A stretch of 32,172 nt of DNA from Jimgerdemannia flammicorona (GCA_003990765.1 RBNJ01000001.1:62001-94172), one strand, 5' to 3'; counted from the stretch's first letter, positions 1-29,333 are shown. Notes: a model not told the origin generated them from the letters alone. Translations and numbers: made by a program.

Positions 1-1
1 G

Positions 2-127
2 GACAGCAAGCCATTAGTAATCACCCCCCCTACCACTGAAGAGGATGGCAACAACACTGAGAAAGACTCTCTACCTTTCTCTCCCCTGGTTCTCAATTTC
101 CGAATCAATGAGGATATTGATTTCTAA
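2..127 (+). CDS. C-terminal tail of the 3' accessory ORF of a family-B Ty3/Gypsy copy (B2); the rest lies upstream of the window
   Basis: Open frame DSKPLVITPPTTEEDGNNTEKDSLPFSPLVLNFRINEDIDF* ends at the PPT. It matches the minus-strand tail at 3266-3350 (ENSLPSSPLVLNF*INENIEF*). Confidence 0.6.
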   Translation, partial: DSKPLVITPPTTEEDGNNTEKDSLPFSPLVLNFRINEDIDF

Positions 128-138
128 GAGAAGTAGGA
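126..138 (+). other. Polypurine tract of element B2
   Basis: AAGAGAAGTAGGA lies immediately before the TGTAAT LTR start. Confidence 0.7.
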
Positions 139-904
139 TGTAATAGAATGAGGTATGATGAGCGATCATATGATCCAGCAATGATATAATCATATGATTG
201 AGTGTAACATATGAATGATAAATGTAATGAAGAATGTGAATGATGCAAAAAATGATATCCAGCTTATCTCTGACAATCAGTGCTACAGCAACTATTATCA
301 CAGTAGCTGATCATTGCTTAGTAATTGAGGTCCTGATCACAAAGTTGTTTTTGCCAAAAACTATCTGACAAAGATTGTGATCACAAACCTCATTATAGTT
401 ACCAAATTAGTCACTCATACTTAGTCAGAAATCATGGACCAACTTGTATAAATACCCCCCAGTTTTCATCTGAAATAAAGCAGTTTTAGTTCAATCTTTG
501 ATATATATAAGATTCAAGTCTCCCCCCCACACACATATTCTCCTGAGTCTTAGTAATGACATCTAAGTGACTCTAGTATTTCTGACTAAACTCCAGAAGC
601 CTAGCTAACTTCTGCTAGAACTGAGACCAGTATATAAATCTCCAAAAGACTTAAGTAAACCCATTAAACCTAAATTCCAAGGCAAATTCAGTCTGGACAC
701 AGCAAAGAATAAGACCCTTGCAAGATAGGGCAAAGAGAAAGACCTTTGAAAGATAAGACACTGCCACTACAATTACTTTTAAAGTGAGTACTTTCTCAAA
801 CTGAAGGCTTCTTGATATATATTGTATACTGAGTCTCTAAGTAATACTCTTACTTCCCTAATTATTCAAAGGATAAGAGAGAGGTAGAAGTGAGAGTTAT
901 TATA
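139..904 (+). repeat. 3' LTR of family-B chromovirus copy B2 (~766 bp)
   Basis: Starts TGTAATAGAA and ends GTTATTATA (decayed ...TACA). It is the reverse-complement homologue of 2491-3261 and 19988-20761. TATAAATA at ~447 and AATAAA at ~474. No PBS follows it. Confidence 0.85.
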
Positions 905-2490: not shown

Positions 2491-3261
2491 TGTAATAACT
2501 CTTATTTCTACCACTTTATTATCCTTTGAATAATTAGAGAAATAAGGTATTACTTAGAGACTTAGTACACAAGTGTATCAAGAAGCCTTCAGTGTGAGGA
2601 AGTACTCACTTGAAAATAGTTATAGCAGCAGTATCCTTCTTATTAATTATGATTATAAGGAACTTATTTCTTACTGTATACTAATTAAATTCATCTTGAA
2701 ATTCAGATTCAATAGGTGGGTTTACTTAAATCTTTGTGATTTATATACTAATCTCAGTTCTGGCAGAGTTAGCTAGACTTCTGAAGTTTAGTCAGAAATA
2801 CTAGAGTTACTTAGATGTCATTACTAAGACTCAGGAGAATATGTATGTATAGAGAGAAACTTGATTTTCATATCAAGGACTGAACTAAAACTGTCTTTAT
2901 TTTAAATAGAAACTAGGGGATATTTATATAAGTTGGTTCATGATTTCTGACTAAGTATAAGTGACTAATTTGATAATTATGATGAGGTTTATAATTGTAA
3001 CCTTTGTTAGATAGTTTGTGATCAGGAATACTTTATAATCAGAATCTCTATTGTTAGGCAATGATCAGTTGCTGTGACACTGATTACTGTGGTACTAATT
3101 ACTGGGAATAAGTTGAATATTATTTATTTATATCATTCATATCATTTATTATGTTCATTATTCATATGTTATATATTATACTTAATCATAATATCATTAC
3201 TAAGTCATGTAATTGCTCATTATATGTTGCATCTTGTCTGTTTGTTCATTCATTCTATTAT
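2491..3261 (-). repeat. 3' LTR of element B
   Basis: Direct repeat of 19988-20761. The + strand begins TGTAATAACT. A small deletion affects the PPT-side terminus. Confidence 0.85.
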
Positions 3262-3265
3262 CTCC

Positions 3266-4093
3266 TTAAAACTCAATATTCTCATTAATTCAAAAATTGA
3301 GAACTAGGGGAGAAGAGGGTAGAGAATTCTCCTCCTCATCTAATTCAGTATTATTGCCACTCTACCAGAGGTTGGGAGGTGGTTGCTAATAGCTCAATAT
3401 CAAGAATAGAGAAGTCAATGAAGTCTACAAATAGTTCTTGAATTGGTATAGATAGTGGAGTAGGAGTTCTCTATCTAATATGGTTGGGGTCATCTAGGTA
3501 TAGTTCTTACTTGTTATGTCTAGAGATATCTATTCAGATAGATAGTCCTTCAAAGAGGTCAGAGAGACCCTAGAGCCATTGATCTGGATTATCATTCAGA
3601 ATAGAGCTCTAATGGGGTTTGCAGTCAGTGAACTTGAGAATAATTCAGGAGTTGGCTTCTTGAGTGATCTTGATCTCCAGTTCATCAATCTCAAAGTCTA
3701 GAAGTCCTTTAGTTGTATATAATTGAGATTGGAGATTACAAAAGGTATATGGTGTATAATTTGATAGATCTTCTTGGTTAGTCTTTGCTTATTTCTATCT
3801 AGGTTAGTTCAGTCTGAGATCTGGTCAGTGGGTAGGCCTTTTACATACTGAAGAAGTTGGTGATCAATTTCATATTTATGCCAGATTTCTAGATAGCTGA
3901 TAGCAAGATAGACCCTTTCTATGACTTCACGATGATTAAGAACATACTGTCCTAGGTCCTGGCTGGTGAGGTTAAGGACCTCAGAGTGATAGTTCCTTTC
4001 TTAGATAGCAACTTAGATATATCCAAAGAGACAGTCAACTTGGCTTGAGAGGGGCTGGCTATAGCAAACTGTTTAGCAATAGGTAGTAGATAT
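3266..4093 (-). pseudogene. Decayed ~275-codon accessory ORF between pol and PPT, homologous to the LTR ORF of element A
   Basis: Manual translation SQDLGQYVLNHREVIERVYLAISYLEIWHKYEID...KKIYQIIHHIPF/ISNLNYIQLKDF/IDELEIKITQEANS/ILNDNPDQWL*GLSDLFEGLSI aligns co-linearly with 9432-10247. The start appears mutated ATG>ATA. Stops and frameshifts are present. Confidence 0.8.
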
Positions 4094-4160
4094 TCTTATC
4101 TTATCTTTTCTTTGGAGAAAGGAGAGAGAGATGGAGGTTGTAGTGTATTTCTGTCCTGAG

Positions 4161-4168
4161 TATTTATA
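4161..4168 (-). promoter_or_regulatory. Putative internal TATA box for B's accessory ORF
   Basis: Minus-strand TATAAATA(CTC) about 70 nt upstream of the inferred start. Confidence 0.45.
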
Positions 4169-4782
4169 CTTATTCATCTGACTGGTTTAACTTCACTTTG
4201 ATCATATTCTTTGTAGAATATATAATTTATTACTATGTAGGGTATGTGCTAGTTATATGAGAAAATATAGATTTTGAAGATATCATCATATTGTAGTTAT
4301 AGTTATACAGAGGTGACAGATCTTAGTCTTCTTTTTTTTATCTTATTGGTATATTTATAAGGACTGGCCATTCTTGTTCAGGACAAGAGCTTCCATTATT
4401 ACAGCTGGAAATTCAAACTCTCAGAAATAGTATTTCTTATAATCTGAGGCAATTTCTAGTAACAATATCTGTCATATAGATGGACTTGAGATTGGTTTCA
4501 ACATTGTTAGCTTTCTTGAGTTCTATATGAAGTATTTGTTATTCTTCAATAGAGATGATATAGATAACATAAATAGGGTTATTCAAATATATTTTACTAA
4601 ACCTTACTAGGTTGTTTTTCACCTAATTATTCTCTTATTGGTTAATTATAATATTCCTTTTTCCTATAATGTTCAATATTGTATATCCTGGATAAATATA
4701 TAGTATCTTCTTTATTTACTATATATTCTAGATTTTAGAGCTATAGTTTCTTCCTTTACTATAGGGTGAGTGTTTTTATATA

Positions 4783-7700
4783 TATAGTTCTAAAGGTCTT
4801 TATGTGCATTCTCCAGTGCTTCTTCTTTTTCCCAGATAGCATCATGGATGGGATAACTCTTCTACTTGATGAGGAAAAAGCACTTGACTGTTTTAGCATA
4901 TTTGTAGATCTTGTGGTCAAGTACTTCCTCAATTTTGAATTTCTCATGATTATTAATTCTAATTGAAAGTAGTAGTGGAACTATATACTTAGAGAATAGA
5001 TTCACATAGTAGTCTACCAGTTGGCTGATATAGAACACTGAGTATACTCAAACATTTTGGAGAAGTTGTAACTTGTAGTTGACTTTACTGTTTTTCTACA
5101 ATCATATATAGTCCAATTCTTCTAATATAGAGTTTCTTAAATAGTTGCTACACTAGAGTGTCTGGATAGAGATAGTCTGTTCTAAGCATGATTATGTCAC
5201 TGATATTATAGGAGACTTCTCTTTACTTCAAGTTTGCATACTGGGCCTGGTAGTCCTATACTTCTATAAGAGTATATCTTATTATTCACATAAGGTCAGA
5301 AATAGTCTTAGCCAGATCTTGGGCTACTGAGACTGCTGATTTTGCAGTTATACTCAGGGTCCTTGGATGTTGACCATAGTTCAGAAAGAATGGGGTCTTC
5401 TTTGTAGAGATTTGCTGACTATTGTTGTAGGCAAACTTAGTATAGGCTAGGTACTTATTCTAATCATTTTGCTTGTAACAGCAGAAGATACTAAGCATCT
5501 GCTTGAGAGTTCTATTGGTTTGCTCAGTCTGACCATCAGTCAGAGAGTAGTAGGCAGTAGAAAACTTCAGCTTGATTCTATGAAGAGAGAAAAATATCTT
5601 CCAGAAGTTGCTGATGAACTTCATATCTCAGTTAGATATAATGGTGCTAGGTATGTTATATAGTCTGAATACTTAGTTGAGAAAGATTTTGGCAATCTCT
5701 GGTACTATAGTAGTAGTCTTAGTGGGTGCAAAATGGGCTTATTTGCTTAGATGGTCCACAAATACTATATTGGTATCTTCTCCTGCCTTGGTCTTGGGGA
5801 GCTGAACAATGAAGTCTATAGTAATCTGATCCCAGTTGTAGCTATGAATGGGTAGAGACTGTAGAAGTCCTACTGGTAGCTTGTTACTACTTTTGAATCT
5901 TTGACATATCTTATATAAGACTATAAAATCTTTGATATTCTTAGTCATCTTTGGCTAGTAGAACTCTCTTAAGAGGAGATTGTAGGTCTTCTCAAAGCCA
6001 AAGTGTCTTGCTACAGGAGTGTCATAGAGTTTCTGCATGATCTTGAGCTACAGAGTATTATTATTAAGTACAATTACTCTGTCATAGTCTCTATAGATAA
6101 GCCTATTATGGTAGATAAATCTTTTGAACATTTGCCTCATGGGTTCTGAGATCTTGGCCTCTAGATCTTAGTAAAATTGAAGGAAATTTACCAGGAGGCT
6201 GTCTTGTTGGTAGTCATTCTTAATCAGCTGAGTAAAGTCTCTAATTATCTTGATCATGAAGACAAGTTTATCTTCCATATATCTGGAGAAATTATCAGCC
6301 ATACAGTTGGTCTTACTTGAGATATACTTGATTTTTATATCAAAGTTAGCAATGATTTTCATCCAATAGGCTTGTCTATGGGTCAGTATGGGCTATATGT
6401 GAATGTACTGTAAAGTATAGTGATTAGTATAGGTCATAAATAGTTATCCTAGGAGGAAATGATACCATTTCTGAAATGTAGTGATAATGGTCAGGAGTTC
6501 CTTCTCATGGATAGTATACTGGATCTCAGCTAGCTTAAGCTTTTAAGAGAGATAGGCTACTGGGTGATCTTCTTAGCTGAGTACTACTCTAAAACAATAT
6601 CAGAAGCATCTGTAGTCAGAGTGAATGGCCTAGTAGAGTTAGGTACAATTAGCACTGGAGCCTTAGTAAGGAGTCTCTTGAGATGGTTCATGTCTGAGTA
6701 CACTCAGAGGTCTATTCAGTCTTGATATTTACTCCTTTGTAGATCAGGTTGGTCAGTGGGGCTGCAATAGCAGAGTATTCTTAGATAAACCTTCAGTAGT
6801 AATCTGTAATATCTAGGAAGCACTAGAGTAGCTTGAGAGTAGTGGAGATAGAAATATCCTTGAGGGCTAATATCTTTTGGAAATCCACATTGATGCCTTT
6901 AGTAGAGATTATATATCCTAGGTACTCAATCTGGTCTTGATAGAACTTGCACTTACTCATCTTAGTATAGAGCTAGTATTCTTGCAGAAGGGTCAGTACC
7001 TGTCTGAGATGGGTATAGTGTAGCTCCACTGTTTTACTGTAAATTAGTATATCATCAATGTACACAAGGATACAAATATTGAGTAGTAGTCCAAAGATAT
7101 CATTCATCAGATACTGGAATATTGCTAGTATATTAGTCAAATTAAAAGACATAACTTGAAACTAGTAGTATCCAAACTATATTCAGAAAGCTGTCTTCTT
7201 AATGTCCTTCTCATTAATGAGAATCTGGTGATAACCATTTCACAAGTCTAGTAGGGAAAAGGTCTTGGCCTTGAAGATTTGGTGCAATAACTTATCAATC
7301 CTAGGTAAGGCATACTGGTGATCTTGTTAAGAGCTCTGTAGTTAATGTATATTCATAAAGAGCTATTCTTTTTCTTGATAAATAGAATGGGGGCTCCAAA
7401 TGGAGAATGACTGAATTCAATATATCCTTGGGCCAATAGTTTGGTCAATTCATCCTTGAGAATCTTGAGTTTAGATTGGGCTAGCTGATAGATACTCTTA
7501 TATAGAGATTCAGATTCTGAAATGAGATCAATTCTATGTTGAATTTGGCACTTAGGTAGAAGTTCTTTGGGTTTCTGGAATATATCTTGGAATTCTCCAA
7601 ACAATTCTTGAGCTTCTGGTGGGATTGGGCTACTCAAGACTTCAGTGACTTCTTGTATAGTAAAAATGAAGTATATGTTTCCTTCCTTATAGAAGAGTCT

Positions 7701-8900
7701 CTTCATTTGAATAGCAGAGATGATTTCGATTCCTTGATGATTAGTGTCTTCTTGAGGTAACAGGGTGATCTTTCTGCCTTTATGGGTCAAGTTAACCTCA
7801 TTAGTCCTCTAGTTGATATCTGGGTTGTACTGGGTCAATCAGGCCTTTCCTAGGATAATGTCTTGTTCTGGAAGGTCTATGATGCTGAAGTCTAACTTCT
7901 CTTGATATTTACCAATCTTGAGTAATAAATTTTTGCAGATCTTGGTCAATAGTGCAGTCTTACCATTACTAAAGATAACACTCTTTTTCTCAATAGCTGG
8001 TCTGCTTCAGGCTCTAATTCTCTTGGCAGTCTTGGTGCTAATATAGTTTTTAGTAGTACTACTATCCAATAGAACATTGATATTCTGTCTATAAACTTGG
8101 TCTGTGAACTTGATATAACTGTTCTCTTTCTTGATAGTATTGAGCTCTTCATTCTTATTGTCCCAATTGCTATCAGTCTCCTCAAAGTCAGTTTCTTCCC
8201 ATCCTTTATAAAGAGGGTGGTCTTGTTTGAGTTCCTTAGTCTATTGGGCTTGACATTTCTTAGATTGGATTTTAAAAACTTTGGAGAGGCATGTATGGTA
8301 TTCACTAATATATTCCATGCAGTATATTCAGATAGAATGAGGACATTATCCATATGGTATATAACTATCTACAATTCTCTTATATTAGTTTCATCATCTT
8401 TCTTTATAATGGTAACTTTTTGACTAGGGGGTTTGTTAGTTAATCTAAACTCTTTCTTGCTACAGTCTATCTGAGAGAGCTCAAGGACTTCTTCAATAGT
8501 GAGATCTTGATAGATTACTTTAATGATTGTTTGTTCAATTCTTTGACCTACTTTGACTTCAAATGAGGTGTCTTCAAAATTTCACAAAATGACATGGATT
8601 TTACCAGTAAATTCTTAGTTAACTACTCCTTTTTCTAGTCCAATGTTGAATTCTTTGACCAGGCTGCTTTGCTCAGCAAGATAGATATATATATATATAT
8701 TCCTTTGGAGGCTTGCATTATAATTCTAGTATGTACTGTAGTATTTATACTTAGTGGAATGGTGGGCTATTGTAAAAGTTATATCCAGTATCAGTGGGAT
8801 AAGCCTTAGTGGAGATGGGGGCCTTGTACCATATCTTCTATACTTTGATGATATTCTCAGAATTCTTCTTTCCTGGGCCTTCTCCAATAACAGTGATGTT
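4783..8900 (-). pseudogene. pol: pol of element B: protease, RT, RNase H, integrase, chromodomain
   Basis: VLLDSSTTKNYI (~8040-8075), SPFGAPILFIKKK, ILVYIDDILIYS (~7035-7070), TTDASD, WDQITIDFIVQLPKT, TDGQTEQTN. Chromodomain FKIEEVLDHK...FLIK*KSYPIHDAIWEKEEALENA (~4800-4945). Many stops. Confidence 0.9.
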
Positions 8901-9185
8901 CTGATTGTTAGATTCATCTGATCTTTTTCTCTTCTCAAAGTATCTAACTGAGATATATCCTGCCTTCTTGCAAATAAAGTACAATCCTTTTTCACAAAGC
9001 TGCTTCTTTTTGTTCTCATTGAGGGATCTTAGTTCTTAGGGATTTTGCTGGTTCCTTTGGTCATTCCTTTGATCATTTCTTTAATTATTTCTTCTAATGA
9101 GATTCCTCTTATCTTGGTTATCCTTCTCATGTTCTGAATTTTATGAGGTCTATACAGTAAGGATTTTACAGACTCTTCTTTATAC
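8900..9185 (-). pseudogene. gag: C-terminal part of B gag (decayed zinc knuckle), cut by element A
   Basis: Minus-strand LYFICKKAGYIS is a decayed CCHC knuckle. The sequence joins 18384+ across the ATAT TSD. Confidence 0.7.
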
Positions 9186-9307
9186 ATATTGTAATGATGA
9201 CCCCAGAATGATGACATCAGCACAGGAGATAGCCTTTCCTTGCAAACTACCAGATCAGAGCATAAGAAGATCATATGGTATATAAGATGAGCAATGATGA
9301 CCAACTG

Positions 9308-9351
9308 TGAGTCATTGTGACCACAGTACAAGCATCCTGAAGAATATAAAA
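9308..9351 (+). promoter_or_regulatory. Putative promoter of the LTR ORF: TGAGTCA (AP-1/Gcn4-type site) plus TATAAAA
   Basis: TGAGTCA at 9308-9314 and TATAAAA at 9345-9351, about 80 nt upstream of ATG 9432. Both are kept in the 3' LTR (16860-16866 and 16897-16903). Confidence 0.5.
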
Positions 9352-9431
9352 GAAGGATCAAGGAACTGCAGTAGCAGTAACCAACAAGAACCACCAATCC
9401 CAAAATAGCTCAAAGACTTACTACAAACAAA

Positions 9432-10247
9432 ATGCCTACTGCCCACCAAACCTCAAGGTCAAGGAATCACCAAGGTATCTTAGTCAAGAAAAGGATGTTT
9501 CAAGACATCAGAAGAGCCATGGGGACCTGCTCAAGAAGGACTCCTAGTGTCCACCATACTGCAGACCCTTATCACTTCATTCTCTATCACCATGAAATGG
9601 AAACAAGGATCACTATTGCTACTGAATGCCTCCAAATGTGGCAGGAGTATGAAATAGGAAACCTCCTCTGCTGGGAGTTCCCACAGGCCAGCACCCAAGA
9701 GCTACAAGATGCCACTCCCATAGATATACATGAAATGAGGACAGCTAAGAAGATCCATCAGATCTTCAGGCATGTACCATGGTCAATCCCCAACTTGGAG
9801 TATGTCAGAGTCTCAGACTTCAGAGATCTATCATCCCACTATATCAATGCACTAGAAGCCAGGGTGGCTACAGAAGCCCAGTCCACTATCACCCTCAACA
9901 GCAAAGAAGTAGAAGACTTCTGGCATCCTATCCTTCAGGACAACCCAGACCAATTCCTGCAAGGATTGATCTCAGTATTCCAAGGCCCAAGCATCCAGGT
10001 TAGACCTCTCCAAGATCTCACATTTGTTCTCTATTTTGTAGAAGAGAACCTCATAGACTGGAGAGCTCCAGATCTTGTTTCCAATTTCCCCACCACAGCT
10101 GGACATGATGACATCATTGGTGATAATATCATCTCATGCAACATCGAAGTACATGAAACACATGACCTACATGACAAATTTGCGGATCTCATCTCCTTCA
10201 GTGATGATGATGATGAAGCCTCCATGATCCTGAACTTTCTACTCTAA
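9432..10247 (+). CDS. LTR (U3)-encoded uncharacterised protein, 271 aa, acidic C-terminus
   Basis: Longest ORF in the window. Open in both LTRs, with a homologue in element B. Confidence 0.85.
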   Translation: MPTAHQTSRSRNHQGILVKKRMFQDIRRAMGTCSRRTPSVHHTADPYHFILYHHEMETRITIATECLQMWQEYEIGNLLCWEFPQASTQELQDATPIDIHEMRTAKKIHQIFRHVPWSIPNLEYVRVSDFRDLSSHYINALEARVATEAQSTITLNSKEVEDFWHPILQDNPDQFLQGLISVFQGPSIQVRPLQDLTFVLYFVEENLIDWRAPDLVSNFPTTAGHDDIIGDNIISCNIEVHETHDLHDKFADLISFSDDDDEASMILNFLL

Positions 10248-10255
10248 AAGTTCTT

Positions 10256-10383
10256 TGTTATACTGGATAATGCCAGTACTGGTATTCTCATGTAACACTG
10301 GATTATGCCAGCACTGGTATTCTGAGGTAATGCGAAATTGTTCCAGCACTGATATTTTGATGTGACACTAAATAATGCCAGCA
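10256..10383 (+). repeat. 35-bp tandem repeat in 5' LTR of A (~3.7 units)
   Basis: Unit approximately TGTAACACTGGATAATGCCAGCACTGGTATTCTCA, with internal palindrome AATGCCAG-CA-CTGGTATT. Confidence 0.9.
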
Positions 10384-10488
10384 TCCTGAACCTGTACAAC
10401 CATCAGTGCTAGCCCTGGAACTTAGTAGTTTTAGTTATTGAAATTTATATTTAGCTTTATATCATAGCAACTATTGAATTATATTTTG

Positions 10489-10521
10489 TATAAATACTCC
10501 TCTTATTTCCTCTGAAATAAA
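10489..10521 (+). promoter_or_regulatory. LTR core promoter TATAAATA and polyA signal AATAAA
   Basis: TATAAATA at 10489-10496 and AATAAA at 10516-10521. Equivalent modules occur in the other LTR families. Confidence 0.65.
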
Positions 10522-10727
10522 GTCAGTCAAGTTCACTTATACACACTTCCTTGCAAGCCATTTAAGAGATAACAAGACAGTTAAAGATAAGAAGTTTGAG
10601 AACTATAAGACCTTAAGAAGGTACTCCAATAAGAGCTTGCTTATAACAAACTTGAGTTAGTCTAAGAGATATACCTTGAAGAGAATCTGGTATATTTGAA
10701 GGACTCAGTGACCACTATGTGACAACT

Positions 10728-10745
10728 TAGTGCCCATTGGCTGGT
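10728..10745 (+). other. Primer-binding site of A (tRNA not assigned)
   Basis: TAGTGCCCATTGGCTGGT 3 nt after the LTR end. Element E has TGGTATCCATTGGCTGGT at 29238. Confidence 0.75.
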
Positions 10746-10850
10746 GATTCAAGATGAATCCCTCACTTTCAAGCTGAAAAACAAACAACCTCCACAACAA
10801 CTACCCTGACTACAAGAGTTACCCCTGTAAGAATTCAAGACAAGATAGAA

Positions 10851-11650
10851 ATGCACCCCCCCACATTCTATGAATATACTACTGAAGAGTCAATTCTGAC
10901 CTTCATTGAAGACTTTGAACAATTTGCCACCATACAAGCCCTTGGTATGGATGCTCAATTGGCCCTTCTACCAGTCAGCCTCAGAGGACCTGCCAGAGAC
11001 AAGTTCAATGTAGCTACTATTGCTGATGCTGGTGCAGCCAAACTTACCAACATGAAGGTCTTCCTCAGAACAATATATTATACCAAAGAGATCAAGCAAG
11101 CTCTCAAGGATCAACTCAATACTATCTGCCAGAGACTTAGTGAAGATCCCAACTCATTCTATACCCAAATTTGCCACCAGATTGTCTTGGCTGGCTATGA
11201 TAACCACCTTAAGGAACAAATAGCAGATTCAACCTTCCTCAAAGAAGTTCACTCTGAAATTGCCCTAGCAATCCAGTCTACCCCAGCTGCACTGACCCTT
11301 GATCAGAAAGTGGTCTTTGTACAGAGATATTGGACTGCCAGACATCCTACCAAACACTCAATAGAGAAAATAACTGGTATCAAGATGGAGCCATCAAAGC
11401 CAACTAGTATCATACCTGCCACAGTCATAAATAGACAACCAACCCCACCTATCCCCAAGACAGCCAAAGCTGACCCAGTGGAGGAACTTGTCAAGCAGTT
11501 TGCCGAGATAACTGCACACCTTGGTGATATTGTTAGAGAAGTCCAAAGTGCTAACAGGAGACCAGTATAGAGATTTGTAGCTGCTACAGAAGAATGCAAT
11601 ATCACATGCTTCAGATGTGGAGAAGAAGGCCACTATGCAAAGAGTTGCAT
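10851..11650 (+). pseudogene. gag: gag of element A with CCHC zinc knuckle
   Basis: 239-aa open capsid-like frame, then a TAG, then in-frame CFRCGEEGHYAKSC. Confidence 0.85.
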
Positions 11651-12936
11651 GACCAAAACAAGATGTAAAGCCCAACCAAGCAATGCTAGCAGAACCAGAG
11701 AAAAACCAATACAGTAGTCATTGAGGAGATTGGTGATACTGATGATGAAGAATACTATGAGGAGCTTGAATTCTACCCTGCTACCGAAGGTACCAGAACC
11801 TGGTCCAAGCCCTATGATAAGAAGAGCAACAGTAAGCCAGTTGGAAGACCAAAGAAGACCCCAGCTATCACTATTCAAAGTAAGACCCAACCCGAGGAGA
11901 TTGATCAAGACATGGAGTTAGATGAAGCTGTTTGCCAAATTATTGAAGGCACTATTCTAGTCTCAGGAGAAAGCAAAAGCAAGAAGGAACAGAAGTTGCA
12001 CAAGACCAAGATCCACCAGTATGACATCTACAAGGACCTCAAGAAATAGAAGGTCAATGCCACTTTTGGACAGCTAGCTGAAGTCCCTGCCTTTAGACAG
12101 CAGTTGAGAGTAGGACTTGCAACTATGCCAAGAATCAAGAGTACAAGATTGTAGAAGCTCACAATGCACAAGAAGAATCCAAGAACTTAGGTAAAGAATC
12201 TGAAGACCAGCGCAAGACATCAGCCTATACCCCCTGCCAGATCGAAGACTATATCTTTGATGCCATTATTGATACTGGTACTAGAGGATGCCTCATGAGC
12301 AAGAAGGCAATTGACTACCTAGGTTGAGACATTGAAGAGTCCACCAAGATGGTCTATGTTACAGCAGATGGTATACAAGCTACCCCCCTTGGCAAAATCT
12401 GAGAAGTCCCCATCAAGATAGGAGGAGCTACCATTCCAGTAGACATGATTGTTACAAGTACCACCAACTATGACATCCTCATTGGCAACCAATGGCTTCA
12501 CAAGACCAAGGCCATTATTGACCTCAATGCCCAGAAGATGCAGATCAACTACAGAGGAAGAAAGGTATAAGTCTCTATCAATGTCCACAAAGGAGTTCTA
12601 CCAGACATGGAGGAAGGAGATGAAGAAGACACAGAGGTCTTCATGCACTTGGTGAACAAGAACAAGAACAAGAGCAAGACACCTAAGCTCATAGATGAGT
12701 AGTGGTACAACAAGATCATTGATGGATATGTCCCTCAAGGAAGATGCCCCCATAGTACTAGGATGTACTGCTCCAAACACCTGAATGACTGCTGGTTCTG
12801 TATCAGTGAAGTCAGGAAAATCCGCCAACAGAAACATGAGCAAGAAGCCACCGAAGCAAAAAGGAAAGCTGAAGAAGATGACCAGCCCCCAGAGCTTCAA
12901 GCTGATAGTGATGATGAGGAGAAACAAGAATCAGAC

Positions 12937-13670
12937 ATCACCCTCAAAGTCAAGAAGTTTCACCCTGAAGTCAAGATCCCAGAATACAAGACTGAAGGAG
13001 CTATAGGAATAGACCTTGCTAGCATTCAAGATGCTACCCTTGAACCACAGACCACCACCCTACTTGGCACTGGAATTGGAGTCAAGCTGCCAGAAACCAT
13101 GCCAGAATTATCAAGACCAGGAGCAGTCTGGCCAAAAGTGAAATCTCAGTTGAAGGAGGAGTAATTGATCCTGATTATACTGGCAAGATCTTCCTCATAG
13201 TCAGAAATCACAACTACACCACTCCCTTCAATTTTTTTTTTTTTTTTTTATAGTCACTCAGACTCTCCCTTTATTACATCCCATCTATCCCATATAAGTA
13301 CAGTGAACTCACCCCCTAATCTATCCCCCTAGGGAGGCCCCTCCCCCCTACTCCTTCTTGATGAAACACCACTCTATTGAATACAATTCCTACCCTCCCA
13401 CCACTCTGTTTACATATCCTTGTCACCAAACCCCGTCATCGCCCCTCTGAAGGCCCCCAACCTATCCACCATCCAGTCATCAGATCTCCTGACAGCTCCT
13501 CCCACCTTAAAACCTTCTTCTGCAGGCTCAACACACCACCCCCTTTGAAGTCAAGAAGCATGACAGGATTGGCCAGATGCTGATCCATGAAATCAAGAAG
13601 CCCAAGATTATAGAAGCCATCGAACTCATCAAGACCAAGAGAGGAGAACAAGGCTTTGGATCTACTGGAA
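12937..13670 (+). pseudogene. dut: dUTPase domain of A, split by a LINE fragment
   Basis: Motifs AIGIDL, RSSLA, GVIDPDYTG, DRIGQML and RGEQGFGSTG, in canonical trimeric dUTPase order. Confidence 0.92.
13232..13532 (-). mobile_element. 5'-truncated LINE insertion (301 bp) with polyA tail and 16-bp TSD
   Basis: T18 run. TSD ACACCACTCCCTTCAA (13216-13231) versus ACACCACCCCCTTTGA (13533-13548). Encodes LSLQKKVLRWEELSGDLMTGWW..., homologous to the LINE C-terminus at ~2100-2300. Confidence 0.9.
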
Positions 13671-16600
13671 GAGAGGTCTATGCCACCACCAAGATTACCA
13701 AACTTGAGCACAAGAAAGATAAGGACCAGAACAAGTACACATATACCATTGGAGAAAACTTTCCCCTGGAGAAACAACTTCTCAAGATCCTGCATCAGAA
13801 CAAAGAAGTACTTGCTACAGACTTTAGGGATATCCACAATCAAGAACCCAAGTACTAACATAAAGTTGACACTAGTGATACCAAGCCTATCTACCAGAAA
13901 GCCAGACCTATACCACCTGCCTACAGAGAGTGGCTGCAAGCTGAACTCAATGAAATAGAAGAAGCCAGAATCATTAAGCAAGCTATCAGCCCCTGGGCCT
14001 CACCCATTGTTCTAGCCCTGAAGAAAGGAAGCAAGCCTGGAGAGTTTGTACCAAGACTCTGCATTGACTATAGGAAACTCAATGCCATCACCAAGAAGGA
14101 TAGGCAGCCCTTGCCAAATATTTAAGAAATTCTCACTACTCTTGGAAGTGAAGCCAAATACTACACTACCTTGGATCTGTTCTCAGGCTTCTATCAGATT
14201 GGTCTCACTCAAGATACCAGTGAGAAATCAGCCTTCATCACACCTGATACCACCTATATCTATCTGTGAATACCATTTGGAATGTGCAGTGCTCCAGCAA
14301 GTTTCCAGCAAATGATAAACAGAGTCTTCAGCAACAAGATTGGAAAATAGCTCTTTGTCTATGTTGATGATGTGATCATCTTCAGCAACACTGTATGGGA
14401 ACATATCAATTACATACAGCTAGCCCTCAAGAGGCTCAAGGAGCATGGCCTCTACATCAAGCTCAAGAAATGCAAGTTTGCAGCTCAAGAAATTGCCTAC
14501 CTAGGACACCTCATCAACCAGACTGGAATCCACACAGACCCCATGAAGATCGAGGCTGTTGCAGCCTACCCAAGACCCAGAACAACCACAGAAGTCTACA
14601 CCTTCCTTGGACTGGCCAGCTACTACAGAAGATTCATCAAAGGATACTCCAACATTGCAGCACCTATCTATGAGCTACTGAAGAAGGAGACCAAATTCAA
14701 ATAGACCAAGGAGTACCAAGAAACCTTCAATGAACTCAAGACCAGGTTGACCCAAGCATCCATCCTCAGAAGACCAGACTGGAACCTAGAATTCATCCTG
14801 CAGATAGATGTGAGTGCTATAGAATTTGGAGCAGTTCTAGCTCAGAAGAAAGATGGACATGAATATGTCATCTCTTATGCAAGCCAAGGTACCTGCAGAG
14901 CAGAACAGAACTATAAGTCATGCAAGCTTGAATGCTTAGCAGTAGTCTGGGCAGTAGACAAGTTCCACTACTACCTAGCTGGGAAATACTTCACTTCAAA
15001 CAGACCATTCTGCTCTTGCCTGGCTATTCCACACTCTGAACCCCAAAGGAATATATGCCAGATGGATCTACAGGCTACAAGAGTATGACTGTACTGTTAA
15101 GCACTGCTCAGAAAAGACCAATACCAATGCTGATGCACTCTCAAGGACACTCTGAAACACCCCCATCAAGACTATTCAACATGAATAAGGAGCTATACTA
15201 TGGATTAATTAGCTATCTTAGGCAGCGGAAGATGCCCAACCACCTCGAACCCTGGACAATCACCATTATCAACTGGACTTAGAAATAGTTTGAATTAGAC
15301 AACACTACACTCAGAAAAGAAGGAAAGCTAGTAATACCTGAACACAAGAAGTATCAAGTAATGAAGGAAGTACACAAGCAAGGACACTTAGGAGGAATCA
15401 ACACATATGACAAGGTAAGAAGAACTATGTAGTAGCCCAAGATGGAAGAAGATCTGCGCCAATTTGTCAAAAGGTATGACAAGTGCCAAAAACAGAAACA
15501 AGATCAGCAAGACCAGGTATCTGGGTCATCAAGAATTGAGCCTATCTCCTTTCACCACATTGCAATGGATATCATTGAACTACTACCAGTGACACTATCA
15601 GGAAACCACTATATTATAGTTATTGTAGACCTCTTCACCAAATAGATAGAGGCAGGAGCATTATAAGAAGTCAATGTCCTCTCTATAGTTGACTTCCTAT
15701 ACCGAGAAATCATCTGTCACTACAAGACACCAAAGCAAATCACAACAGACTGTAGAATGGAATTTGTCAATGGATTCTATGAGATAATATATCAGAAATA
15801 CAAGATCCAGCACATCAAGACCACTGTGTACCACTCTTAAGAAAATGGACAGACAGCAAGAACCAATAAGACCTTTAAGAATATTCTAGCGAAGATCTCA
15901 GACACATATGAGAATTGGGATAACTATCTCCCAACTACCCTCTCTGTCCTATGAGACATATGGTCACAGAGTACACATTTTACCCCAAGAGAGCTGCTCT
16001 TTGGAGAAGAAGATTCTGATGGAACCTCAGCCACAAATATAGACCTAACTTGGAGATGGGTTGATGCAGAAATCCAGAGACTACACCAAATCAGGAAGAA
16101 GGCTGAAGATTACATCACCAAGTTACAAGCACTGATAAAGAAGAATGTGGAAAAGAATCACAAGGCCCTAGAATCCATCTAAATCAGAGAAAAGGTTCTA
16201 CTATATCAAAATATGGTAGAAGCCTCATGGTCATGAAAACTAGAGCCCAAATGGGAAGGACCCTTCTATGTGCAAGATATAAAGGGAACTATCTTCTGGC
16301 TTAGAAAAATCTCAGAGACCATACTGCCTACCATGGTACATAGGAACAGACTCAAGAAGTACCATGAACCTATACAAGAGAAGTAAAATGTGATGACTGC
16401 CCATGAGGTTCTAGTCTGTGAATTGTAACAGCATGTCCCATGACTAGCAGGCTATCTGTCTGGACCATTCTCTAAGGGATATGGCACTGGCAACTACTCA
16501 TCTGTGAGACTTTCGAAGTCAGAGGAGTTTGAACCATCAACTGATTGGTCAAGATCAGAATCAGGCCCTTGCTCTAAATGAAGGAAGTGACTCTTCACCA

Positions 16601-16731
16601 TCACACCAAAATACAAAGGGAAGATGCCAGCCCATAAACACCAGTTTTTGACCCCTTGCCAGAGATTATAGGATCAGCAAATTTTTCAGGACTGGACTAA
16701 TGAATAAGAATGCTCAGGAAGATCCTTATTC

Positions 16732-16741
16732 AGGAGGAAGA
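16732..16741 (+). other. Polypurine tract of A
   Basis: AGGAGGAAGA abuts the TGTAAT start of the 3' LTR. Confidence 0.8.
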
Positions 16742-16983
16742 TGTAATGGTGACCTCAGAATGATGACATCAGCACAGGAGACAGCCTTTCCTTGCAAGCC
16801 ACCAGATCAGAGCACAAGAAGATCATATGGCATATGAGATGAGCAATGATGACCAACTGTGAGTCATTGTGACCATAGTACAAGCATCCTGAAGAATATA
16901 AAAGAAGGATCAAGGAACCACAGTAGCAGTAACCAACAAGAACCACTAATCCCAAAATAGCTCAAAGACTTACCACAAACAAA

Positions 16984-17832
16984 ATACCTGCTGCCTGCCA
17001 AACCTCAAGGTCAAGGAATCACCAAGGTATCTTGGTCAAGGAAAGGATGTTCCAAGACATCAGAAGAGCCATGGGGACCTGCTCAAGAAGGACTCCTAGT
17101 GTCCACCTGGGTACTGCAGACCCTTATCAGTTCATTCTCTACTACTGTGAAATGGAAACAAGGATCACCATTGCTACCGAATGCCTCCAAATGTGGCAGG
17201 AGTATGAAATAGGAAACCTCCTCTGCCAGGAGTACGAAATAGGAAACCTCCTCTGCCAGGAGTTCCCACAGACCAGCACCCAAGAGCTACAAGATACCAC
17301 TCCTATGGATATATATGAAATGAGGACAGCTAAGAAGATCCATCAGATCTTCAGGCATGCACCATGGTTAATCCCCAACTTGGAGTATGTCAGAGTCTCA
17401 GACTTCAGAGACCTATCATCCTGTCATATCAATGCACTAGAAGCCAGGGTGGCTACAGAAGCCCAGTCCACTATCACCCTCAATAGTGAAGAAGTAGAAG
17501 ACTTCTGGCATCCTATCCTTCAGAACAACCCAGACCAATTCCTGCAAGGATTGATCTCAGTATTCCAAGGCCCAAGCATCCAGGTTAGACCTCCCCAAGA
17601 CCCCACATTTGTTCCCTATTTTATGGAAGAGAACCTCATAGACTGGAGAGCTCTAGATCTTGTTCCTGATTTCCCCACCACAGCTGGACGTGATGACATC
17701 ATCAGCAATGACGTCATCCCATGTGACATCAAAATACATGAAATGTGCAATCTGTATAACAAATTCGCAGATCTCATCTCCTTTAGTGATGATGATGATG
17801 AAGCTCTCATAATTCTGAACTTTCTGCTCTAA
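16984..17832 (+). CDS. Second copy of the LTR-encoded protein (first ATG mutated to ATA, frame still open)
   Basis: Co-linear with 9432-10247. Carries a tandem duplication of QEYEIGNLLC and has no internal stop. Confidence 0.75.
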   Translation: MPAACQTSRSRNHQGILVKERMFQDIRRAMGTCSRRTPSVHLGTADPYQFILYYCEMETRITIATECLQMWQEYEIGNLLCQEYEIGNLLCQEFPQTSTQELQDTTPMDIYEMRTAKKIHQIFRHAPWLIPNLEYVRVSDFRDLSSCHINALEARVATEAQSTITLNSEEVEDFWHPILQNNPDQFLQGLISVFQGPSIQVRPPQDPTFVPYFMEENLIDWRALDLVPDFPTTAGRDDIISNDVIPCDIKIHEMCNLYNKFADLISFSDDDDEALIILNFLL

Positions 17833-17840
17833 AAGTTCTT

Positions 17841-18038
17841 TATTACACTGGATAATGCCAGCACTGGTATTCTCATATAATACTAAATAATACCAGCACC
17901 AGTATTCTCATGTAACACTGGATAATGCCAGTACTGGTATTCTCATATAACACTGGATAATGCCAGCACTGGTATTCTGAGGTGACGCAAAATTGTTCTA
18001 TCACCAGCATTTTGATGTAACACTAAATAATGCCAGCA
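17841..18038 (+). repeat. 35-bp tandem repeat in 3' LTR of A (~5.7 units)
   Basis: Units start at 17841, 17876, 17911, 17946, 17981 and 18016. Confidence 0.9.
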
Positions 18039-18383
18039 TCCTGAACCTGTACAACCATCAGTACCAGCCCTGGAATTTAGTAGTTTTAGTTATTGGAATT
18101 TATATTTAGCTTTATATCTTAGCAACCATTGAATTATATTTTGTATAAATACCCCTCTTATTTCCTCTGAAATAAAGTCAGTCAAGTTCACTTATATACA
18201 CTTCCTTGCAAGCCATCTAAGAGATAACAAGACAGTTAAAGATAAGAAGTTTGAGGACTATAAGACCTTGGGAAGGCACTCCAATAAGAACTTGCTTATA
18301 ACAAACTTAAGTTAGTCTAAGAGATACACCTTGAAGAGAATCTGACATATTTGAAGGACTCAGCAACCACTATATGACAATAT

Positions 18384-19099
18384 CTAAGCAAAGTATAATA
18401 AGTAGTGGAGATATTCTTAAAGAAGGTCTTATTCCTTAATCTTCTGAGTGAGTCAGTCTGGTAGTGCTATAGAGAGATGGCTGGCTCTGATACCATTGAT
18501 GGCCAAATTGTTTTCCTAGTAGATAAGTCTCACAGTCTTGAGATAGGCATCTATCCTGGTGGTAAAGATTTCTAGATCCTCTTCACTATTCTTATAGAAC
18601 TTCATCTAGGCTAGTTTGTTCCAAGTTTCTTATATATAGGCTGTATTTTAGAATTTGGTCAGTAGCAGAGCCTTGAGTTCTGAGTCTACTATATAGTTAC
18701 CTCAACCTGGTCTGTTATAGGCAAGTACTTATCCAGTGACTTGAGGGCAGTCTTCTCAGATTACTGAGTGTTTTTCTAAGATACACCAAAACTTGACTGC
18801 TATTCTAGTAAAGAATGTTACTACTGTTTCCACTTGTACTGCTGATGTAGCAAACAGCCATTAAAGGGTATTATCTTGGTTATTGATAAGTATTCCAGTA
18901 GGTACTTGGTTATTATTCATTAATTTACTTAGTATCCTATATATACTATTTTGATAAAGGTTTCAATATTGCTGTTTTTTCAACTAAAAGTGGAAATTCT
19001 CAAGGTCTTGGTTGGTTTGTTCTGTTCAGCAATTTGTTCTACTATGCCTGCTAGTATGGCTGGCTAGGTAGTCAGAGCTGCAATATTGGTATCTACCAT
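18384..19099 (-). pseudogene. gag: Core gag of element B (N-terminal part)
   Basis: MVDTNIAALTT...; similar to D gag MAN*QILDLTAQ... and shares the NG(I/T)RA motif. Confidence 0.65.
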
Positions 19100-19960
19100 T
19101 GTATTAACTACTGGTAGTAGACCTATGGGGGTAGATTCTCCTGAAGATTATTCTGTCTAATGAGATTGTGATGCTGTATGACTTGAGGTTACTTGATTCC
19201 TAGAGATCAGATCAAAGAATCCTATAAGAGTAGATAGACCAAACCTCTATATAGGTGGCTGGATTAGTTCTGAGGTCTGATCTTCTTGATCTATAGATTC
19301 TTGGTAAATTTCTAGGCCTACTGTTCATTGTTGGCTATTATCAGACTAATAACCTACAAAGTCTTCATCTGACTCTCTTTTCTGATGAGATAGTGCATCC
19401 TCATACTGACTAGGTTCTTCAAAGAAAATATCTATCTCTGGTAGAGTAAATGGGTCTGCTTCTTGATCAGCAGTAGGAGGTAGATGGCCTGCCTATTTAG
19501 TCTCATATCTTATTATAGCAGAGGCATAGTAAACAACTAATCTATAGTAGAGAGAGATCCTAGTAGGAATATGATGGTATCTGTTAGATATAATCTACTT
19601 GACAGCTGCTTCTCTTGCTACAGGGGGTGAGATATAATCTAAAAATTCCTAGGTGGCTATAATAGTAGATTCTTGAGTCCTAGTAGTTCTAAGAAAGTTA
19701 TAGAGAAGTATATAGAACCTATGGTGGCTGACTATATTCCTAAGACTTAGGTGAAAGTTTCTAAAGACCTCATATAGATCTCTGTAAGCCTGGTCAATTA
19801 CTAGCTAGTAGATTTCTGAGTCAGAGGTTTTCTGGTATTACCTGGTCTTAATGTCTAGCTCTAGTTTGGAGGTTTGTTCCTAGAAAATCTACAGTTGGTT
19901 TTGGGGTTACTTCTATCTAAGGTTGGTCTTGTTCCAACTTCTCAAGAGTGTGTTCTTCTG
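19100..19960 (-). pseudogene. Decayed pre-gag ORF or gag N-terminal extension of B
   Basis: FLDYISPPVAREAAVK*IISNRYHHIPTRISLYY~ISCLLC aligns with the D region 24472-24594. Confidence 0.6.
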
Positions 19961-19972
19961 GGCTCAGTAATT

Positions 19973-19984
19973 CCACTGCTATTA
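19973..19984 (-). other. Decayed PBS of element B (probably initiator tRNA-Met type)
   Basis: TAATAGCAGTGG 3 nt after the LTR end, consistent with G>A decay of TGGTAGCAG. Confidence 0.6.
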
Positions 19985-19987
19985 AGT

Positions 19988-20761
19988 TATAATAACTCTT
20001 ATTTTTACTCCTCTCTTATTCTTTAGATAATTAGAAAAACAAGGTATTACTTAGAGACTTAGTATATAAGTATACTAAGAAGCCTTTAGTATAAGAAAGT
20101 GCTTACTTAAAAGTAGTTATAGTGGTAGTATCCTTCTTATTAACCATAGTTATAAGGGACTTATTTTTTGCTATGTATCAACTAAATTTGTCTTGAAATT
20201 CAGGTTCAATAAGTGGGTTTACTTAAATCTTTATAATTTATATATTAGTCTCAGTTCTAGCAGAAGTTAGCTAGACTTCTGAAGTTTAGTTAGAAATACT
20301 AGAGTCTACTTAGATGTCATTACTAAGACTCAGGAGAATGTATGTATGTGGAAGGGGGCTTGATTCTCATATTAAGAACTAAACTAAAACTGTCTTTATT
20401 TTAGATAGAAACTAGAGGATATTTATACAAGTTAGTTTATAATTTCTGACTAAGTATAAGTGACTAATTTGGTAACTATAGTGAGGTTTATAATTGTGAC
20501 CTTTGTTAGGTAGTTTGTAATCAAAAATACTTTATGATCAGGACCTCTATCATTAGATAATGATTAGTTGCTATAGTGCTGATTACTGCAGTGCTAATTA
20601 CTGGAGATAAGCTGAATATCATTTATTTATATTATTCATATCATTTATTATATTTATTGTTTATATATTATATATTGTACTTGATTATGACATTATTACT
20701 GAGTTATATAATTACTTATCATATGTCATGTCTTGTCTATTTATTTATTCATTCTATTATA
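19988..20761 (-). repeat. 5' LTR of element B (774 bp)
   Basis: Repeat of 2491-3261. Termini decayed TGTA>TATA. Followed by the TSD AAAAG. Confidence 0.88.
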
Positions 20762-22860: not shown

Positions 22861-22886
22861 ATCATATAAATCTTAGACAAAAAGAA

Positions 22887-23180
22887 TAATATCTCCATGA
22901 ATATTCATCCAAATTCAACGAAACAAAGTGTGTGGTATTCGCCTGATTAGGGGCTTTCTAGCAATATAGGTTTCATTGAAATTGGACAAGTATTTATGGA
23001 GGAAATTAACAAAATGTCCATAGGTCATAGTTGAGCCACATTCTGTAAAAGGTTTTGTTGAATTTCTCCACAAATACTAGTCCAGATTAAATGAAATCTA
23101 TACTGCTGGAAAGCCCTTAATCAGGCGAATACAGCACACTTTGTTTTGTTGAATTTAGATGAATATTCATAAAGATATTA
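22887..23180. mobile_element. MITE/foldback-like long inverted repeat
   Basis: Imperfect arms of ~128 bp (22887-23014 and 23053-23180) around a ~38-bp spacer. TA at both outer ends. Confidence 0.75.
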
Positions 23181-23222
23181 AGTGATTTATGTTGATTGTT
23201 TTGGTTAATTATATTTGAATTG

Positions 23223-23273
23223 ATTTGAATCTGATTCAAATTCCATGTGACTGGATTTGAATCAGATTCGAAT
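23223..23273. repeat. Pair of 19-bp palindromes forming a larger inverted repeat
   Basis: ATTTGAATCTGATTCAAAT (23223-23241) and ATTTGAATCAGATTCGAAT (23255-23273). Confidence 0.8.
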
Positions 23274-24096
23274 TACACTGACTCATTTGGAGCACTATAT
23301 ATAGCTATCTTTCACCATAGTGCTGTTACCTATAGAATATATACAGACAGTGAATCTGATGAAAGTAAAGATGATGCACTCCTTCTCCACCCCCCAACTC
23401 TATACCCAGCATATGAGACAGATGATGCTATTCTATAGAATAGTAACATAGTTCCAATGTATTATTACTTGAGTAAATAGGGAAAAGTAATCCAAGAACC
23501 ACTCTTCCTAGATGATTACTTTATCAGAGATAATATCATTGATAGTGATATCATCAAAGACTACCCAGATAGCATCTAAATCTATAAATAGCTTAGCAGT
23601 CATTAGTATAGTTAGATTAGCCTTATATAATATGACTATATACTGACTCAGTAGCTAGATAATCTCTTGATATATTAGTTCACACTTATACTATGTGACT
23701 ATATTTTAATTTAGCAAGACACTAAGTACTATATCTATATTTAGCATAGTCCAGATAGTATCTCATTAGTATAAATACCCCCTCTCTCAGACCTCAGAAA
23801 CTCAGACTCAAATAATTGAACTTCTGAACACTTTTCTACAATATCTCTTCACATAACTACTCCTAGTATAGTAATATTATAAATAGCAAATAAATCTATT
23901 TAATAACCCACAAATTACTCTTAAGTAAATCTGTACCACATTAGGTCCCACTTTTAACCATATTATGAAATTTTCTAATTAGGTATTATCTGCAGTAATA
24001 TGTCAATTCAACTAAGCTGGTCTTAGTTTCTTAAACCTCCTGAAACACTAAAAATCCTGAACATCTAAAAATAGTCTGAAAAAAGACTTTAAAGGA

Positions 24097-29234: not shown

Positions 29235-29333
29235 ACTTGGTATCCATTGGCTGGTAATTCAAGATGAATCCCTCACTTTCAAGCTGAACAACAAACAACT
29301 ACAACCAGAATGCACAGAACACAATCAGACAGA

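Follow-up and report, generated by a model that had tools for sequence, protein, structure and literature searches.

The minus strand at positions 3266–4093 of the DNA analysed here, a stretch of 32,172 nucleotides from Jimgerdemannia flammicorona which we refer to as the window, contains the decayed copy of a gene that is found in intact form within the LTR of a second, distantly related retrotransposon. This gene, an orphan here termed ORFx, is real and under selection. We regard it as a lineage-specific accessory gene of a dUTPase-carrying Ty3/gypsy group, where it constitutes a sense additional ORF at the 3' end, and we think that its carriers probably share it by descent from a common ancestor and not by exchange, with a presumed shift of the LTR boundary in one of the families.

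Organization of the nested elements

In the window, decayed Ty3/gypsy elements are stacked and nested in one another. Element B extends on the minus strand from 2491 to 20761, with LTRs of 84% identity and the TSD CTTTT, and element A (plus strand, 9190–18379, TSD ATAT) is inserted in the gag of B. The two duplications, of 5 bp in B and 4 bp in A, had been correctly assigned in the first-pass annotation, which was made from the sequence alone. Both elements contain the constituents of Ty3/gypsy retrotransposons, namely LTR pairs, TG...CA ends, TSDs and a pol region of the order PR-RT-RNaseH-INT, in which the Pfam domains RVP_2, RVT_1, RT_RNaseH and Integrase_H2C2 follow each other. Element C, which is related to A, has its PBS at 29236 and interrupts element D (about 24500–28790). 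The only intact ORFx of the window resides in A, and every other copy is decayed. The features on which the following sections draw are listed below.

1–126, plus strand: C-terminal end of ORFx in B2, a third, B-like copy; ends with ...SPLVLNFRINEDIDF-TAA and is cut by the window edge
127–904, plus strand: polypurine tract of B2 (127–138) and subsequent LTR, which starts with TGTAATAGAATG at 139
2491–3260, minus strand: 3' LTR of B; TSD CTTTT at 2486–2490
3261–3265, minus strand: remnant GGAGA of the B polypurine tract, directly after the ORFx stop; partly deleted compared to B2 and contig L002
3266–4093, minus strand: ORFx pseudogene of B; 10 in-frame stops, 2 frameshifts and ATA in place of ATG
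4161–4168, minus strand: putative cassette promoter box TATAAATA of B, about 70 nt upstream of the former ORFx start
4795–4939, minus strand: putative chromodomain of the B pol, a weak match; PF00385, E 2.5e-4, 21.3 bits, under the cut-off of 25.1
8449–8695, minus strand: dUTPase of B, upstream of the protease; PF00692, 30.6 bits (cut-off 22), E 3.1e-7
9190–10724, plus strand: 5' LTR of A; TSD ATAT at 9186–9189
9345–9352, plus strand: box TATAAAAG in the A LTR, 87 nt upstream of the ORFx ATG
9432–10247, plus strand: intact ORFx of 271 aa in the U3 part of the A 5' LTR
10256–10381, plus strand: 35-bp tandem repeats, starting 8 nt past the ORFx stop; 3 overlapping register copies
10489–10521, plus strand: A LTR core with TATAAATA at 10489–10496 and AATAAA at 10516–10521; kept in A, B, B2, C and L001
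16732–16741, plus strand: A polypurine tract AGGAGGAAGA, upstream of the ORFx cassette
16742–18379, plus strand: 3' LTR of A; TSD ATAT at 18380–18383
16984–17832, plus strand: second ORFx copy, in the A 3' LTR; open throughout, ATG changed to ATA, 30-nt in-frame duplication
19988–20761, minus strand: 5' LTR of B, without ORFx; TSD CTTTT at 20762–20766

Domain orders were obtained from Pfam scans of stop-masked frames. Element B is organized as gag(CCHC-like)-dUTPase-PR-RT-RNaseH-INT-chromodomain, with the chromodomain scoring below the Pfam cut-off, and D shows the same succession of dUTPase and PR. The order in A is gag(CCHC)-PR-dUTPase-RT-RNaseH-INT, and C is ordered as A. A chromodomain was not detected in A at E≤0.05 between 16150 and 16741, in an element whose decay makes loss indistinguishable from absence.

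A decayed copy of ORFx in element B

In a tblastn search, the 271-residue protein encoded in the A LTR (P0001) matches the minus strand at 3964–3701, with 34% identity over 88 residues (E 8.8e-14, 62 bits), and in a second HSP at 3761–3537, with 34% identity over 76 residues (E 1e-6). Among 500 dinucleotide-preserving shuffles of the region 3266–4093, 134 gave any HSP and the highest score was 24.3 bits, compared to the 62.0 bits that were observed. The same region is recovered by a profile constructed from 12 outside homologues alone, from which both window rows had been excluded. In the six-frame translation of the window, this profile gives five domain matches, two in the 3' LTR and one in the 5' LTR of A and two in B, the latter at 4030–3692 (E 1.4e-35) and 3755–3444 (E 8.1e-21). 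Pairwise search, shuffled control and profile thus all sustain the relationship to the A LTR ORF that the first-pass annotation had proposed on the basis of a manual alignment, and the peptide pairs quoted there are present in the translations.

The B copy has retained the stop codon of the family (TAA at 3268–3266), whereas its start position (4093–4091) now reads ATA, where the family has ATG. Over two HSPs with P0009/P0023 it contains 10 in-frame stops, and the frame is left and later regained. An additional TGA at 3292–3290 is found where the sister copy B2 has CGA. The B copy is located between the putative chromodomain and the polypurine tract, and its position in B had therefore been aptly described as env-like. 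Beyond these matches, the same profile detected nothing in the six translated frames of the window, even with a threshold of E≤10 and without filters, and on this ground we reject a derivation of ORFx from gag.

ORFx defines an orphan gene family under purifying selection

Outside the window, protein searches identified six relatives of ORFx at E≤1e-3 among 166 candidates and six at the same threshold among 1.84 billion representatives, with the probably spurious P0013 as one of the latter, a profile search retrieved 13, and cluster look-ups added further members. All of these relatives are from metagenome sources, with intact ones present in soil metagenomes, and a functional name is attached to none. 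Runs containing near-identical words of the A LTR are likewise mostly labelled as soil metagenome. A scan of metagenome contigs provided two short loci out of 44 pattern matches, and ORFx was found in none of 18 viral contigs and in none of 23 contigs of prokaryote genomes.

A phylogenetic tree of 15 ORFx proteins displays three well-supported groups. One, the A-side clade, combines the A-type proteins with the L001 type (support 97/97), a B-side clade contains P0009, P0023/L002 and P0011 (97/92), and a third is formed around P0024 (100/100). Between these families, ORFx is subject to purifying selection, as manifested in a dN/dS of 0.19 for A compared to L001 and of about 0.09 for L001 compared to L002, in the latter case with saturated dS. 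The claim of the first-pass annotation that conservation at the protein level reflects a real, selected gene is thus confirmed by the existence of intact homologues elsewhere and by a between-family dN/dS of 0.09–0.19.

The A family is highly repeated in metagenome runs, with 7681 contig pieces of 85–100% identity in run X1 alone, and the window copy of A mostly has A or T at sites where other copies have G or C. In two runs (all four that were compared, X1, X5, X10 and X17, being contigs), the LTRs of A are covered deeper than the interior. As the RNA label of these runs is guessed and the copy number of LTRs gives the same picture, the deeper coverage is no evidence for or against expression.

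Position of the cassette relative to polypurine tract and LTR

A TATAAA sequence upstream of ORFx is invariant in all five aligned sequences (A 5', A 3', L001, L002 and B), where it precedes the start codon by 65–87 nt. It is followed by a leader of about 20 nt ahead of the ATG, in which A matches the B-type contig L002 at 19 of 20 positions and L001 at 17 of 18, and this conservation coexists with saturated synonymous sites between the same families. The invariant box and the conserved leader agree with the unit of 'TATA plus ORF' that had been noticed previously. ORFx would in this way constitute a small transcription unit in which a TATA box and a short leader (about 20 nt) precede an ORF of 250–340 aa and the LTR poly(A) signal follows downstream, and its mRNA, of about 1.2 kb, would start at its own TATA box and end at the poly(A) signal of the LTR.

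The cassette is found in two different arrangements. In B, B2 and L002, the ORFx stop is followed by a purine tract, which is partly deleted in B, and then by the LTR start TGTAAT, so that ORFx ends at the polypurine tract in the manner of the additional ORFs classified as aORF-3S, whereas in A it is located inside the LTR. There, the LTR begins with TGTAATG immediately after the polypurine tract AGGAGGAAGA and 242 nt ahead of the ATG. Since this purine tract is upstream of the cassette, the whole ORFx cassette is contained in both LTRs, and ORFx (9432–10247) is encoded in U3, between the LTR start at 9190 and the core TATA at 10489. The remainder of the A LTR after ORFx comprises 477 nt. It opens with TGTTATAC 8 nt past the stop and continues, after the 35-bp repeats, with the core TGTATAAATAC...AATAAA. 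The repeats differ in number between the two LTRs of A, with 3 register copies in one (10256–10381) and 5 in the other (17841–18036), and each unit opens with TGTAAC/TGTTAT, similar to an LTR start.

An LTR core of the form TGTATAAATA...AATAAA is kept in A, B and C, and its TATAAATA element is invariant in all seven aligned LTR ends (A 5', A 3', B 5', B 3', B2, C and L001). LTR starts of the TGTAAT type are found in A, B, B2 and L002. In the 8 kb that precede the PBS of C, no match to the ORFx profile was found, and the LTR of this element would be about 445 nt long if it started with TGTGACAG at 28790, its 3' LTR being located outside the window. The A-side L001 and C contain an identical block of 16 nt in their LTR cores.

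From these arrangements we infer the following succession of events. In the presumed ancestral state, as preserved in B, B2 and L002, ORFx would end where the polypurine tract begins. Priming of the plus strand would then have shifted, in the A family, to a purine tract located ahead of the cassette, with the consequence that reverse transcription would place a complete cassette in the U3 of both LTRs. The direction of this shift is judged from one outgroup-like element, C, with its presumed LTR start.

Two lineages with common traits

The PF00692 profile detects a dUTPase in all four elements, with scores of 28.7 and 29.5 bits in A, 30.6 in B, 77.6 in C and 38.6 in D. The first-pass annotation had assigned this domain to A, as is the case, and had described B as being devoid of it, which is refuted by the match in B at about 8695–8449 (cut-off 22 bits, E 3.1e-7). 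The domain is found in the order PR-motif-dUTPase in A (12232–13670) and C (30696–31793) and in the order dUTPase-motif-PR in B (8695–7778) and D (26133–27067). The motif contained in this succession is a Cys/His motif of the form Y.[KR]I[IV]D.Y[VI]P.G.CPHS...YC...C, which is located between dUTPase and PR at 12706–12855 in A and 8384–8235 in B. The versions of A and B align with each other, with a weaker alignment to D. The segment 12733–12846 of A that holds the motif aligns to C with 42% identity over 38 residues, in a region where C is frameshifted. There is no simple path of duplication and deletion that would convert one order of PR and dUTPase into the other. A variable location of the dUTPase within Pol resembles the situation described for PosPlaTy3-3/-4/-5, where, in the accessible parts of that study, it differs by family, either preceding the remainder of Pol at the N-terminus, which corresponds to B and D, or following PR and preceding RT, which corresponds to A and C (PMC2864245). 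In distinction to the elements described in those parts, both arrangements are found here next to a common Cys/His motif and in elements that carry ORFx.

The RT core is 49.6% identical between B and D (131 aa), compared to 37% between A and B (142 aa) and 33% between A and D (120 aa), and C is the closest relative of A in the window, with 52–62% identity in gag and PR on the amino acid level. A/C and B/D are thus two lineages with different domain order. Across these lineages, ORFx of A and B share 34–43% of their residues and that of A is 36–41% identical to intact B-type proteins, whereas similarity between the gag proteins of A and B is undetectable.

Descent, exchange and other origins of ORFx

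The first-pass annotation had interpreted ORFx as a mobile accessory cassette that was exchanged between retrotransposon lineages, and it had founded this proposal on the contrast between A and B. One part of this claim stands, since a TATA-plus-ORF unit is indeed found in two lineages. The contrast does not, as both elements contain a dUTPase, have the Cys/His motif and the LTR core in common and differ in ORFx to about the same extent as in RT. Since A and B share several derived traits besides ORFx, a shared gene by itself does not demonstrate exchange. After a recent transfer, one would expect ORFx to be clearly more alike than RT, and the observed values are 34–43% for the former and 37% for the latter, in a window that holds one element per lineage (A and B) with both RT and ORFx. 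With these common traits, and with an ORFx identity that does not exceed that of RT, descent from a common ancestor, combined with a shift of the LTR boundary, is sufficient as explanation. The separation of A-side and B-side proteins in the ORFx tree also fits the LTR features of L001 and L002, of which few are available.

It is conceivable, although we are doubtful about it, that recombination, for example template switching of co-packaged RNAs, has instead carried the TATA-plus-ORF module from one of the lineages A/C and B/D to the other, and that the module landed inside the LTR in A and before the polypurine tract in B. The cassette is self-contained, with its own TATA and leader, and it is placed differently with respect to the polypurine tract in the two elements. 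The lineages also differ in the order of PR and dUTPase, which implies that modules have moved within the group, and no chromodomain was found in A, which is decayed. Moreover, ORFx is conserved as well as RT in a pair of elements without detectable similarity in gag, which for an accessory gene would be unusual in case of vertical inheritance. There are also precedents, as in the available text of the respective studies, ORF3 types are common to unrelated retroelements in bdelloid rotifers (PMC5408684) and fungal elements are suggested to have gained their dUTPase independently (PMC2864245). Conversely, ORFx of A and B (34–43%, or 36–41% with respect to intact B-type proteins) is not more similar than RT, and with synonymous sites being saturated between the clades, any transfer would be about as old as the split of the lineages. 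The tree separates the A-side from the B-side proteins with high support, the A-side L001 has a C-like LTR core with an identical 16-nt block, and dUTPase, Cys/His motif and LTR core are common property of both lineages. We thus continue to favour common descent with a shift of the LTR boundary.

The decay of the two LTRs of A bears on a further alternative. The 5' and 3' LTRs (9190–10724 and 16742–18379) differ by 123 substitutions, of which 119 are transitions, and these affect 40 of 48 CpG, 48 of 252 CpA (19%), 26 of 176 CpC (15%) and 5 of 218 CpT sites (2%). This pattern looks like the consequence of cytosine methylation and deamination, unlike classical RIP with its bias for CpA. Within ORFx, the two copies differ by 27 synonymous and 48 non-synonymous changes, where 25.6 and 45.1 are expected from the mutation spectrum, and with this neutral split we reject selection on the two copies after insertion. 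Neither copy has gained a stop codon, compared to an expected number of 4.3 (P 0.012), which we treat as chance, since the gag of A has also kept an open stretch of 270 codons.

The stop-free copies might suggest that ORFx is a host gene, transduced once or domesticated for the host, without a role in the life cycle of the element, and LTR elements are known to capture genes, as stated in the available text of PMC7264820. We consider such an origin very improbable. The amino acid changes between the two A copies are exactly neutral, and every copy of ORFx with flanking DNA is found in the context of a retroelement. A free-standing or longer homologue was not identified, and there is no fused or longer form among 7827 longer candidates, although this is weak evidence. 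The sole long protein at E≤1e-3, the repetitive P0013 of 920 aa (E 8.6e-4), is probably a spurious relative.

Finally, A-type LTRs hold ORFx and are highly repeated in metagenome runs, and nested insertions abound in the window, but there is next to no chance that the match in B is merely a stray A-like LTR fragment inserted beside the 3' LTR of B and no gene of B itself, as the dead copy is closest to intact B-type proteins (53–56% identity) and just 34% identical to the A-type, its junction of ORFx end, polypurine tract and LTR is shared by contig L002 and by the B2 copy cut off by the window edge, and its flanks contain no A-LTR sequence.

Predicted properties and potential function

From its sequence, ORFx is predicted to be a soluble protein whose core is helical and whose tail is acidic, with an N-terminus that is basic in A-side forms. 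A hydrophobic segment was not found in the six members analysed, in which the highest Kyte-Doolittle mean over 19 residues is 0.64–1.07. The first 40 residues, which are not hydrophobic, have a net charge of +5 to +8 in four of the six proteins and of 0 and +1 in two B-type proteins, one of which, as called, lacks part of its N-terminus. The core, about residues 40–215, is conserved and helical by prediction, and the variable, acidic tail has a charge of –11 to –27 and contains short acidic-hydrophobic motifs such as DLI.F, with the end of the protein near a conserved [VIT]LNF. The lack of a transmembrane segment and of a hydrophobic N-terminus rules out an envelope protein, and ORFx is thus, despite its location in B, not env-like.

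ORFx does not belong to any Pfam family, the matches to ATG5_HBR (E 0.088, 2 of 14 members) and GAE_BBS1 (E 0.23, 1 of 14) being noise. A profile search against the PDB gave no match at E≤10. In the ESM Atlas, the top feature score was 0.83, with a bar of 0.9, and structures reached TM-scores of at most 0.33, and a Foldseek search of the PDB yielded no match at E≤1e-3, the best being 1.6. As AlphaFold2 models of ORFx are poor (mean pLDDT of 43.0 with the full-length protein and of 55.9 with the core), we have drawn nothing from them.

As a tentative working guess, ORFx might act in the nucleus and regulate either the transcription of the elements or their silencing by the host, a proposal that is prompted by its putative promoter, its 3'-terminal position and its layout of basic head and acidic tail. 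Were this the case, a simple retrotransposon would possess a feature reminiscent of 'complex' retroviruses. A more specific version, in which ORFx is a self-contained unit encoding a Tas-like autoregulator that moved as a module within the group and became part of the A-family LTR, appears improbable to us. If true, every A-family LTR, including solo LTRs, would be an autonomous protein-coding gene, and such genes could spread and persist independently of gag-pol.

Relation to known systems

A gene within the LTR has a parallel in MMTV, where sag is an ORF in U3 whose product is a membrane glycoprotein. ORFx of element A is similarly located within U3 and consequently duplicated in both LTRs, a likeness that concerns the position only. 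It differs from sag by the lack of a hydrophobic segment and, so far as the profile search of the PDB shows, the two are unrelated.

With respect to its location in the other elements, ORFx resembles the sense additional ORFs between pol and the 3' LTR, which are recognized as the class 'aORF-3S' (Vicient & Casacuberta, 2020, PMC7264820). Compared to what the available text of that study describes, its position and strand match in B, B2 and L002, and it is conserved over copies and families without a homologue outside elements, but it has an apparent TATA box of its own and a conserved leader, and in one family it is found inside the LTR. In the parts of the survey of fungal Gypsy elements that were accessible, the legend of Figure 3 contains an 'add. 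ORF of unknown function', and the positions of dUTPases in fungi are described as variable, with independent acquisitions being suggested (Novikova et al., 2010, PMC2864245). This additional ORF, as worded in the legend, may equal ORFx or be a different protein.

A functional analogy might be offered by the tas/bet genes of foamy viruses, which, as described in the available text of PMC13220597, share with ORFx the character of an accessory gene at the 3' end, which has its own promoter upstream and is 3'-coterminal with the genome. The acidic tail of ORFx would be compatible with an activator such as Tas, with the promoter of ORFx being putative, as deduced from nucleotide patterns. The profile search of the PDB and the Foldseek search revealed no similarity to these proteins in sequence or fold.

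In the literature on ORFs in fungal LTR elements, ORF3 of chromoviruses and internal promoters of LTR retrotransposons, we did not find the ORFx protein described, and the accessible parts of the papers on crapaud (PMC10787394) and Salpingoeca (PMC6875170) have no bearing on it. Two aspects thus appear to be new. The first is an orphan protein family with a putative promoter of its own and a leader conserved across lineages. The second is a natural pair of arrangements, before the polypurine tract and inside the LTR, which would illustrate how an LTR can engulf a gene once plus-strand priming shifts to another site. Additional ORFs are common in LTR retrotransposons, a function is known for almost none of them, and cases of the fungal type have barely been described. 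Within this class, ORFx is unusually tractable, as an orphan family that is conserved about as well as RT over two lineages and that has an apparent promoter of its own.

Further observations in the window

The first-pass annotation had contrasted an 'iMet-like' PBS in B with a different one in A. The bases that follow the 5' LTR in A (10725–10750), B (19987–19960, minus strand) and C (29236–29260) all begin with ACTT(A/G)(A/G)T(A/G), and none of these sites opens with the TGG that is usual for a primer site of a tRNA 3' end. The contrast may thus have been overstated.

The minus strand of the region 20767–23400, the left flank of B in the orientation of this element, is GC-richer, with strong negative GC skew, and contains a match to RVT_1 (E 3.8e-13), beside which Pfam detects no other retroelement domain. 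Our guess is that this region is probably a non-LTR retrotransposon, which was the insertion target of B.

In element C, the segment 31930–32160, just after the dUTPase, contains a 33-nt unit (11 codons) that is repeated in tandem five times, with 94–100% identity of the copies, at the place where RT should begin.
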